From Daphnia carinata (taxonomy: Eukaryota): a DNA stretch of 64,000 nucleotides. The stretch's first letter is position 1. Every line of letters starts with the position of its first letter. Location of the stretch: the NCBI RefSeq assembly GCF_022539665.2, contig NC_081331.1, forward strand, positions 4,526,001-4,590,000. Reading direction: 5' to 3'. The notes beneath the pieces are model-generated. The model worked only from the letters and a program-made list of their open reading frames with translations. It did no database searches and was not told the DNA's origin. Both the position numbers and the translations under genes were made by a program. This document shows positions 1,985-4,900 of the stretch, piece by piece.

Positions 1985-4900
1985 CTATTTGGACATAATA
2001 ATAATGATAACAATAAATTATTTCACGTTTCCTCATTACATAACGTCAAACTTGAATTTCCATGCCCTTCTTCTTCAGAGTTGGAAAATTATTTCATTAT
2101 TTTTTTGTTTCGTTTTCATCTCTGATTAGAATACAAGTTTGCCTTCCATACCTGTTGGGGTGAGGTGACCAGACGGTGACAAATGATGATCCGATGACGA
2201 TGAAGGACGTTGCATTAGACTCATACCGGTTGGCAGTGGCGCCATTGAAGGTCCTAATCCGCTGCTCATACCTCCTCCCTTTAAGCGAAAAACAAACAAA
2301 CAAACGAAAATGATTGAGATTCTAGAAAAATCAATTTCTGCAAAGGGAAGCTCATTTTCCAAAAAAAGAAAAAATCATTGGCTTTTGAAAATAAAACGAT
2401 GTAATTACCTGAAGGACCATAGCTTCCCGAGGCGGGGATATAGGCTCACTTTTGATTTTGAGCGCCACCGGTGACGGTGACAGAGGCGCGCTAGGCGGCC
2501 GCTGAGAGCCCGTATTGGGCACTGCCAAATGGGACAAGGACCTGATGGGGGAAAGAGAAGCGCCATACAAAAATGCAAACAACAACATTCAGTTAAATGG
2601 CCCAATAAAAAACAAAACAAAAACAAACATCAATGAAAGATATTGGACGTTTACCCTAAATGTAGATTGTTGGAGAGGTGACCGGTGTGGTGAACGATAC
2701 CGCCGGAAGAAGATGAGGAGTTGCTGTTGTTGGAGCCGGCGGACGGAGCGCCCCATCCGCCGTGAACGGCGTGCAGAGAGGTGAGTACCATGTCGGGAGG
2801 TAAATTGAAATCAGGTTGACCTTGAGCTCCTACACCACCGTGACCAGAATAACCGGATTGATACAATCCAGACAAACCAGCAGTCTGTAGTGGAACGACG
2901 GGAGTATTCAAACTGCTGTTCCCTCCGCCGCCACCTCCACCTGGCAAAATGTCAATCAAAATCATTCAAATCTGTTTGTTTTTTTGTTTTTTTCCTTTGC
3001 TTTTCTATGTCTCCCACGCTAATGACTCAATAATTAAAAATACAGACATAAATTAAGACAACTATCATTTTACCTCTATCATGGCTAGATATGGCAAGTC
3101 CGGCTTGGTTGCCGGGTATGGCTAGTCTTAAATTATGTCGCTGAGAGGCGGCAAGGTGTTGCTGTTGCTGTGGCGAGAGGGACCGGTTAGCCATCGAGCT
3201 GGAACTCCTGAGCGCCGATTGAGTTGGCGGCGGTGTCGGACTCTCCGGTATGGGCGAACTGGCCGGTTGGCTGGAGCCGTAACCATTGTTGCTACCACCA
3301 ACGTCCAGCATCCCTGAAGATGACGACGGCCGCGGACTGACACTCGAATGGCCGCCCACCATTTGCGGACTGGCGTGTAACATGGAGCCAGGATCTCCGT
3401 AAGGTCCGGGATTGACAGGTACCGAGACGGGCATCGTATAACCGCCGCTCTATTTGGAACAAGCCAAAAAGAAAAAATGTTGATTACAAACTATTTCATT
3501 ATTCAACTGTTTTTGGAAATGATGTTCGGGGCTTACCCTCTGGGCTCCGTTGAGGGGTTGAGTGCGCTGCATCATCATCTGAAATTCTTCGTCGATTCTG
3601 TTGTATTTGGCTTCGGTCCGCGGTGTCAGTGTGTAATCGGTGGCGTCGACATCTTCGCCGGGACTGTCTGGACTGCAGCCGCCACTCTTGTGCTCTTTCT
3701 TGTTCAAAGCCTGGTGCGAGCCAGCCGCAAGAATCAAATAACATTATTAATAATTGCGTCGTAACAAGTGAATCAATCGATTTTTCTATCTAAAAATCAA
3801 CGACGCACAATCGACATTTTTTGTCGTGCACTCATGCAAATTTCTACTTCGATTTTTTTGTTGTTAGTACTTAACGAGCGCACGATGACAATTCAATTTG
3901 TTTTGTTTTTTGTTCTGTTTTAACAATAAATAAAATGATGAAATCAAAGGTAAGGGATGCAACTGAGAAATGGCCAAACCTCAACGATGTCGTTGTTAGT
4001 TCGCGATTCATGCGGCTCGTTATATTCCGTGTATTTGAGCAGCACTTTGTCCATGTCGGTGGAGGCGTACTGGAACAGCTTGTTGGAGCTGCTGAAGATG
4101 ATGAGAGCGATCTCGCAATCGCACAGCACCGACAGCTCGTAGGCTTTCTTCATCAGACCGAATTTGCGCTTGGTGAACGTCACCTGGATACGGCACGCAC
4201 AGGTGTAGTCAGTGGAGGGGGAGGAGGAGGGCAGCAACCGAGGTACAGTTGGATGCAAATTGCAAACACGTGCAAAAAAAAAAAAAAAAGGACAACGTCA
4301 AACAAACAAAGAAAAAAAAAAAAAAAAGAACAGGTTATTCATACGATGATTGCTGTTTAGCATTTCGAAAAATACATGATTAGCAGAATGGCAGTCGGTT
4401 GCTACGATATGGAAATCGGTTTCATCGAGCACGCAGTGGTAGTAGAAAAGAAAGAGATTAGATACTCAAGATTTCTATGCGGCAATAAATGGCGCAATCG
4501 TTTGTCCCTTGAACGTAAACAAGATCACGACATGTGCACTATCGAGACCCGATCGTCATGCCAACATTATTCGATGCAAGTTCTTTGTTGGAGGGGGGGG
4601 GGGGGTATTAGTTTTCTGCTGATTGTGTTTCTAACCTCGATGATATTCTTATTGGTCAACGATTCGTGGGGCTCGTTGTACTCGGTGTACTTGAGCAAGA
4701 CTTTGTCCATGTCGGTCGAGGCGTACTGGTAGAGCCGGTTGGAGCTGCTGAAGATGATCAGAGCGATCTCGCAGTCGCACAGCACCGACAACTCATAGGC
4801 CTTTTTCATGACGCCGAATTTGCGCTTATTGAACGTCACCTTCAATTTTTATTTGCATTTTTTTTTTATTTAAGAATGTTTGTATTTTTTTTTTGTTTGC

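Follow-up and report, generated by a model that had tools for sequence, protein, structure and literature searches.

Mef2 of Daphnia carinata carries two alternatively spliced versions of the exon that encodes residues 19-86, in the MADS/MEF2 domain of the protein. The gene lies in a 64,000-nt window of contig NC_081331.1 (NCBI RefSeq assembly GCF_022539665.2, positions 4,526,001 to 4,590,000 of the forward strand; positions below are counted from the first letter of this window), and we refer to the two versions as exons 2A and 2B. Taking the window together with contigs, gene models and proteins of other animals, we judge it likely that the pair descends from a single duplication of pancrustacean age, that transcripts mostly carry just one of the two exons, and that hexapods have been reduced to 2A.

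Two versions of one Mef2 exon

The gene comprises 8 coding exons on the minus strand (6452-1890; Table 1), and its product, with an N-terminal MADS box and MEF2 domain followed by an HJURP_C region, is a MEF2-type MADS transcription factor. In both isoforms, a Pfam scan finds PF00319 (10-57) and PF12347 (100-158), and the closest PDB entries are those of MEF2A/C/D (E 6e-50). The window reading frame agrees with the RefSeq D. carinata isoforms at 482/482 amino acids, being identical to isoform X2 when it includes 2A and to isoform X1 when it includes 2B (X1/X2: XP_057370828.1, XP_057370829.1).

A first-pass annotation, made from the letters of this stretch, had described two intact 204-nt exons of phase 0/0, and its coordinates, borders and open frames are all borne out: both exons are stop-free and bounded by AG and GT. 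They are 83% identical and lie 452 nt apart. Codon comparison finds 41 identical, 19 synonymous and 8 non-synonymous pairs (34 nucleotide differences), which reproduces exactly the eight replacements and the roughly 19 silent changes already noted. By the Nei-Gojobori method (NG86), synonymous divergence (dS) between the copies is ~1.0 and non-synonymous divergence (dN) 0.057, and the ratio of 0.057, together with conservation of both copies in Branchiopoda and Malacostraca, supports the annotation's view of an old duplication under purifying selection.

Because the similarity between 2A and 2B stops at the exon edges, an assembly echo is excluded, as had been argued before. The flanks are unrelated, and the earlier statement that the flanking introns cannot be aligned holds except for one exact 12-mer that stands upstream of each exon. 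A tblastn search within the window returned no third copy of exon 2. The chance that either copy is an assembly artefact or a dead pseudo-exon is negligible: database echoes do occur, as shown by a MEF2B-like model of the turbot (Scophthalmus maximus; P0008) in which two identical B copies stand in tandem, itself probably an assembly echo, but the Daphnia exons differ at 34 nucleotides with a dN/dS of 0.057, have unrelated flanks and RNA joints for both, and are conserved across crustaceans. Adjacent, homologous, and equal in length and phase, 2A and 2B are alternative exons derived by tandem duplication.

Table 1. Coding exons of Mef2 and candidate control elements, in transcript order (positions within the window)
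Feature	Position	Strand	Description
Coding exon 1	6399..6452	minus	aa 1-18, common to both forms; exon 1-2B joint in contigs of runs X3, X15
Candidate selector S1 (12-mer)	4987..4998	minus	148 nt upstream of 2A; exact repeat of S2; pairs with D in 4184-5060 fold, p 0.86; region kept in P0123
Unusual 2A acceptor	4840..4942	minus	A-rich; 5/25 pyrimidines near AG; 101-nt AG-free zone; distal U tract
Exon 2A	4636..4839	minus	aa 19-86; likely derived, insect-type MADS/MEF2 (N22 V28 Y55 L79 K82 N83 I85; R53 Daphnia-specific); 2A-exon 3 joint in runs X1, X3, X15
Candidate selector S2 (12-mer)	4393..4404	minus	210 nt upstream of 2B; same 12-mer as S1; S2:D hairpin p 0.88 in local fold
Candidate docking site D	4232..4241	minus	10-nt complement of S1/S2, directly before 2B pyrimidine tract and branch-point motif; region kept in P0013
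Exon 2B	3980..4183	minus	aa 19-86; likely ancestral, general-metazoan type (T22 L28 F55 R79 N82 D83 V85); 2B-exon 3 joint in runs X1, X15
Coding exon 3	3537..3710	minus	HJURP_C region begins here; positional counterpart of vertebrate alpha exon
Coding exon 4	3074..3449	minus	From RefSeq-identical reading frame
Coding exon 5	2655..2940	minus	From RefSeq-identical reading frame
Coding exon 6	2409..2541	minus	From RefSeq-identical reading frame
Coding exon 7	2152..2278	minus	From RefSeq-identical reading frame
Coding exon 8	1890..1984	minus	Includes stop codon; from RefSeq-identical reading frame

Exon joints were taken from four of 24 listed runs, all of them assembled contigs of relatives (one recorded as RNA, three guessed to be RNA), and we considered the best-supported 15 of 42 joints; contigs drop rare forms, and depths were not used as expression levels. 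Within this set 2A and 2B are each joined to exon 3, exon 1 is joined to 2B, and separate short contigs exist for each of the two exons. Both exons are spliced to the same neighbours, and the earlier concern that one of them might never be spliced in falls away. Further, RefSeq holds paired isoforms of the same length, one per exon, for D. carinata, D. magna, D. pulex, Artemia, Eriocheir and Procambarus. These data suggest that most transcripts likely contain one of the two exons and not both.

Several observations weigh against that exclusivity. The exon 1-2A joint is hinted at in the contigs (run X18) and is present in the RefSeq X2 models, and the runs all come from relatives, with three of the four guessed to be RNA. 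Although neither a 2A-2B nor a 1-3 joint is among the best 15 of 42, contigs cannot show absence. Both exons stand in tandem in RefSeq Procambarus X1 and in two Cherax models, and Eriocheir X4 has neither. All four combinations (A, B, A+B, neither) are in frame, and decay would therefore not remove A+B or skip-both transcripts. If the exons were independent cassettes, with all four transcripts made and an A+B protein bearing a doubled domain, such models would be accounted for, as would the 452-nt spacing, which excludes simple steric exclusion. We regard this as improbable. No A+B or skip-both model is found among 7 named Daphnia and 2 Artemia members, the two joints that cassettes would produce are missing from the best-supported set, and gene callers presumably also yield tandem models from exclusive exons; for Litopenaeus vannamei, Xia et al. 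(2023, PMC10051702; statements on this and the other cited papers refer to excerpts) describe the orthologous LvMEF2 exons, 2a/2b, as a 'mutually exclusive exon 2'. Of the mutually exclusive splicing first proposed for this gene, alternative use stands, and strict exclusion is qualified by the both-exon models of Procambarus and Cherax and the neither-exon model of Eriocheir.

The contigs diverge unevenly from the window. Those of run X1 show 0/157, 2/208 and 5/171 differences in 2A, 2B and exon 3 and ~83% identity in exons 4 and 6; runs X3 and X15 show the reverse, with 14/207, 11/208 and 21/175 differences in 2A, 2B and exon 3 and 4/132 in exon 6. A mixed sample with a chimeric contig might explain the pattern, as might a mosaic history.

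Distribution and origin of the two exon types

Gene models that fuse the two exons in the order A then B occur in Halocaridina, Artemia, two Armadillidium species, Cherax, Homarus and, in part, Hyalella. Because the same pair in the same order is present in branchiopods and malacostracans, it predates the split between these groups, which is Cambrian. A and B types are told apart by seven positions (22, 28, 55, 79, 82, 83 and 85); all eight residues of the signature first described do differ in Daphnia, but R53K is specific to Daphnia, and the conserved signature is therefore one of seven. Among 521 complete domain copies that were typed, 342 are A-like, 179 are B-like and none is intermediate, and a FastTree analysis of 24 exon peptides unites the A copies in one group with support of 0.999. 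Exon 2A is 1 residue from most insects. Exon 2B differs at 2 residues from its millipede, spider, sea spider and human counterparts and at 3-4 from those of mollusc, rotifer and coral; no named A type from outside Pancrustacea is found among 120 matches of an A query. These distances indicate that 2B is likely the ancestral, general-animal type and 2A the derived, insect type.

To avoid bias toward either type, proteins were ranked by the region after the exon, with a dragonfly query. Among the best 120 of 479 matches, an insect-enriched set that covers Odonata, Ephemeroptera, Polyneoptera, Paraneoptera and Holometabola, 118 are A, none is B, and two are without the domain. Insect cluster members are likewise A in 28/30 listed and 55/57 listed cases, the remainder being without the domain (of large clusters with 19, 25 and 21 members, 15 each were listed). 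Drosophila NP_995789.1 is of A type, as are the single models of Allacma, Orchesella and Tigriopus. In two intron read-through open reading frames (ORFs), P0197 (Tigriopus-like) and P0205 (fly-like), the A exon continues into exon 3 via 24 or 26 codons, and because this gap is 72-78 nt, there is no room for 2B in the genomes concerned. For a further cluster, P0494, 15 of 24 members were listed, of which 12 are A and three lack the domain. The A-only clusters P0494, P0217 and P0222 may be copepods; the tree of their downstream region is a quick one with long branches. Within the A type, N51 and R82 are common to 15 insect matches, mostly Lepidoptera plus a caddisfly (best 120 of 479).

On these sequence comparisons, the likely history begins with a single duplication in the pancrustacean ancestor or close to it, followed by divergence of 2A and retention of both exons in branchiopods and malacostracans; hexapods likely lost 2B and kept the derived 2A, and copepods probably lost 2B separately. 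The opposite polarity would make the insect type the ancestral single exon of Pancrustacea, with 2B arising later through separate branchiopod and malacostracan duplications that converged on the general type. The A-only proteins of hexapods and Tigriopus would fit such a course, as would a dS of merely ~1 between the Daphnia copies. It is nonetheless very unlikely, in that on two occasions seven residues would have had to return to the outgroup state, with the exons each time in the same order. Moreover, 2B is just 2 residues from millipede, spider and human.

Some features of the sampling weigh against a single early duplication with loss in hexapods. The insect record of 2B absence consists of protein records and two ORFs, not genome searches; the B-type outgroups were retrieved with a B query; and the named matches include no Zygentoma, Diplura, Protura, Remipedia, ostracod or barnacle. 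Metagenomic loci say little on distribution, as 0/80 have two exon copies and most are short or non-crustacean; two of them (L001, L002) are spliced exon 1-2B-3 sequences. A combined A+B query against all representatives returned 3 two-copy proteins among the best 150 matches, none beyond the models already in the set.

Two local features concern the Daphnia copies themselves. Codons ~46-52 (4090-4070 and 4746-4726) form a 21-nt run identical between them, and 2B of Daphnia and Artemia has S49, as in 2A, where malacostracan and outgroup B types have N49. Local gene conversion in branchiopods, with 2A as donor and 2B as recipient, may account for this.

Probable protein consequences and candidate control of exon choice

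In human MEF2A, the structural elements are helix H1 (15-37), strands S1 (41-49) and S2 (53-59), helix H2 (62-70), strand S3 (76-80) and helix H3 (82-90), and Cabin1, HDAC9 and p300 dock on the H2 pair via residues 61-71 (PMC3105382). Because residues 56-78 are the same in 2A and 2B, this groove is unchanged, and the first-pass suggestion that the exons provide distinct cofactor-binding domains is not supported. The changes fall instead in H1 (22, 28), strand S2 (53, 55), strand S3 (79) and H3 (82, 83, 85), with L79, K82 and N83 in 2A vs R79, N82 and D83 in 2B. Residue 22 adjoins K23, which reads the border of the DNA site, and H3 presents positive charge to DNA and stabilises H1; in MEF2B D83V, H3 becomes a strand, and DNA binding is modest or lowered (PMC10178880, PMC6505634). 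The D83N change in 2A would strike the same residue as this lymphoma mutation, which switches helix H3. Because the changes fall in H1, strands S2 and S3, and H3 while H2 is unchanged, we lean toward the view that the swap tunes DNA affinity, site or flank preference and H3 stability rather than HDAC, Cabin1 or p300 docking. The three dimer types envisaged in the first-pass annotation would be a further prediction for the two forms.

The two proteins might instead be equivalent, with the pair kept for dosage or splicing reasons and the loss of 2B neutral. Several of the changes are conservative (V/L, Y/F, I/V, R/K), helix H2 is the same in both forms, hexapods are apparently viable without 2B, and loss of H3 through D83V in human MEF2B modestly affects DNA binding (PMC10178880). 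We think equivalence unlikely, given that each type is near-invariant across branchiopods and malacostracans and that the seven residues have not been homogenised. Shrimp LvMEF2 also argues for a difference, since one form is found across all tissues and stages and the other is restricted (PMC10051702). The labels in that paper conflict, however: its text and supplement S1 give A as form I, supplement S2 calls the A-type protein II, and MEF2-11, another A-type transcript, is also called Oka-specific. Because of this conflict and the A-type MEF2-11, the shrimp tissue bias cannot be assigned with certainty to A or B.

As to how one exon is chosen, the 12-mer shared by the upstream introns (selectors S1 and S2 in Table 1) has a 10-base core that occurs nowhere else in the window, and a shared 12-mer arises by chance in 21/2000 shuffles and 21/3000 random window pairs. 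Site D is its best complement in 1000-9000 (-15.9 kcal/mol), with an equal complement in 2/200 shuffles. The local S2:D fold has a z of -2.5 (3/200 shuffles), and S1 pairs with D in a fold that contains 2A. In intron read-through ORFs of other genomes, the S1 region (P0123) and the D region (P0013) are matched at the peptide level. The A-rich stretch of the 2A acceptor also occurs in P0123; other acceptors have 14-18/25 pyrimidines, vs the 5/25 at 2A. In Daphnia, S1:D pairing would loop out 2A and favour 2B, and a local S2:D hairpin would free 2A, whose acceptor is weak. That such competing pairing acts as the RNA switch is a tentative model, and one we would not yet call probable. Counting against it, the elements were found post hoc, the hints of conservation for S1 and D are peptide-level only, a D-like 10-mer occurs 3 further times in the window, and no longer intron-intron duplex was better than shuffles (12 shuffles per pair). 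Both exons also hold the same near-complement of the 12-mer (4789-4780 and 4133-4124; -14.5 kcal/mol), an alternative partner that likewise speaks against the switch. Inverted repeats in the region are mostly A/T runs.

Two other mechanisms of exclusion were rejected, steric exclusion on the grounds that the 2A donor is >250 nt from the nearest 2B branch-point motif, and frame-based decay on the grounds that every exon combination is in frame. Separately, further intron segments conserved in relatives are candidate splicing regulators: 5176-5349, to which contigs of runs X3 and X15 align; a stretch near 5077-5055 that P0123 matches; and 4550-4470 within the 2A-2B intron, with a match in P0466.

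A fuller account would join these parts. The insect Mef2 domain, that of Drosophila included, would be the survivor of a Cambrian-age duplication, in which the derived copy gained seven fixed changes, D83N among them, with its original function still served by the ancestral exon; the isoforms would be tissue-biased and differ in DNA binding, the choice in Daphnia would be made by RNA pairing, and hexapods and copepods would each have dropped the ancestral exon. We put this combination forward as a serious possibility that falls somewhat short of being probable. If true, an ultraconserved domain was replaced by way of a mutually exclusive stage that crustaceans retain to this day. The exon pair is also a clear candidate for the route by which such a domain can change: the exon duplicates, one copy diverges under alternative splicing, and the old copy is dropped. 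Drosophila Mef2, a main genetic model for these factors, has a core domain that departs from that of human, spider and millipede at seven positions which are otherwise near-invariant. In crustaceans the two versions share a single gene whose remainder is identical, a natural controlled experiment on DNA binding and target choice. In practice, RNA interference, quantitative PCR and annotation of crustacean Mef2 must distinguish 2A from 2B, which several database models fuse.

Neighbouring genes, earlier reports and related systems

Elsewhere in the window, a very large gene on the minus strand (31000-46500) has exons of 2207, 969 and 838 codons, with DUF4758 and SEA domains detected and EGF-like cysteine patterns recognised by eye; it likely encodes a mucin-like cell-surface protein. 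Exon-like ORFs on the plus strand at 26466-27367 presumably belong to a mitochondrial phenylalanyl-tRNA synthetase, which they resemble, although the single piece scanned gave no Pfam match. On the minus strand at 51596-51922, a cysteine pattern resembles an LDL-receptor class A repeat.

The exon pair is already known. The supplement of Xia et al. contains an A-type protein, MEF2-16, and a B-type protein, MEF2-17, with the same seven diagnostic residues as Daphnia, and the LvMEF2 exons 2a/2b are orthologous to 2A/2B (PMC10051702). RefSeq isoforms X1 and X2 of D. carinata are the same proteins as the window forms, in an automatic annotation without interpretation. The core finding, for which the first-pass annotation had left novelty open, is thus not new; 2016 GenBank entries titled MEF2-I/II suggest an earlier report still. 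From the abstract to the methods and in its keyword passages, the shrimp paper leaves the duplication, its position in the DNA-binding domain, the exons of other crustaceans and the match to insects undiscussed, and 'Daphnia' appears 0 times (PMC10051702). A literature search on the crustacean exon pair, with subscription journals outside its coverage, found no other relevant paper. It appears not to have been reported that the pair is of pancrustacean age, that 2A is the insect form of the domain, that hexapods likely lost the ancestral exon, or that Daphnia has a candidate RNA switch.

Within the same gene family, vertebrate MEF2A/C/D have homologous, mutually exclusive exons, alpha1 and alpha2, with tissue bias (PMC5852603), and in this they resemble the Daphnia pair. 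As the first-pass annotation had said, the vertebrate exons lie outside the MADS/MEF2 domain, directly after it, where they alter phosphorylation and cofactor recruitment; in Daphnia the swap concerns the domain itself. An alternative exon of the vertebrate kind would begin after residue 86, whereas the Daphnia exon covers residues 19-86 and exon 3 is single in the gene model. Closer in principle is TCF3, in which the mutually exclusive exons E12/E47 swap a bHLH DNA-binding and dimerisation domain (PMC5852603). Fold and lineage differ from those of Daphnia Mef2, and the principle itself was thus already known.

For the control of exon choice, the nearest comparison is with docker-selector systems (Dscam, 14-3-3zeta, Mhc, MRP1), in which repeated selectors compete for one complement and which are predicted to originate with tandem duplication (PMC6071210); in human ATE1, two elements compete for a third. 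In Daphnia, the repeated candidate selectors S1 and S2 are identical and complementary to a single site, D, an arrangement in keeping with an origin of docker-selector pairs by duplication (PMC6071210). The candidate docker would lie between the two exons, vs left or right of the cluster in docker-selector systems, with a predicted pairing of 10-11 bp.

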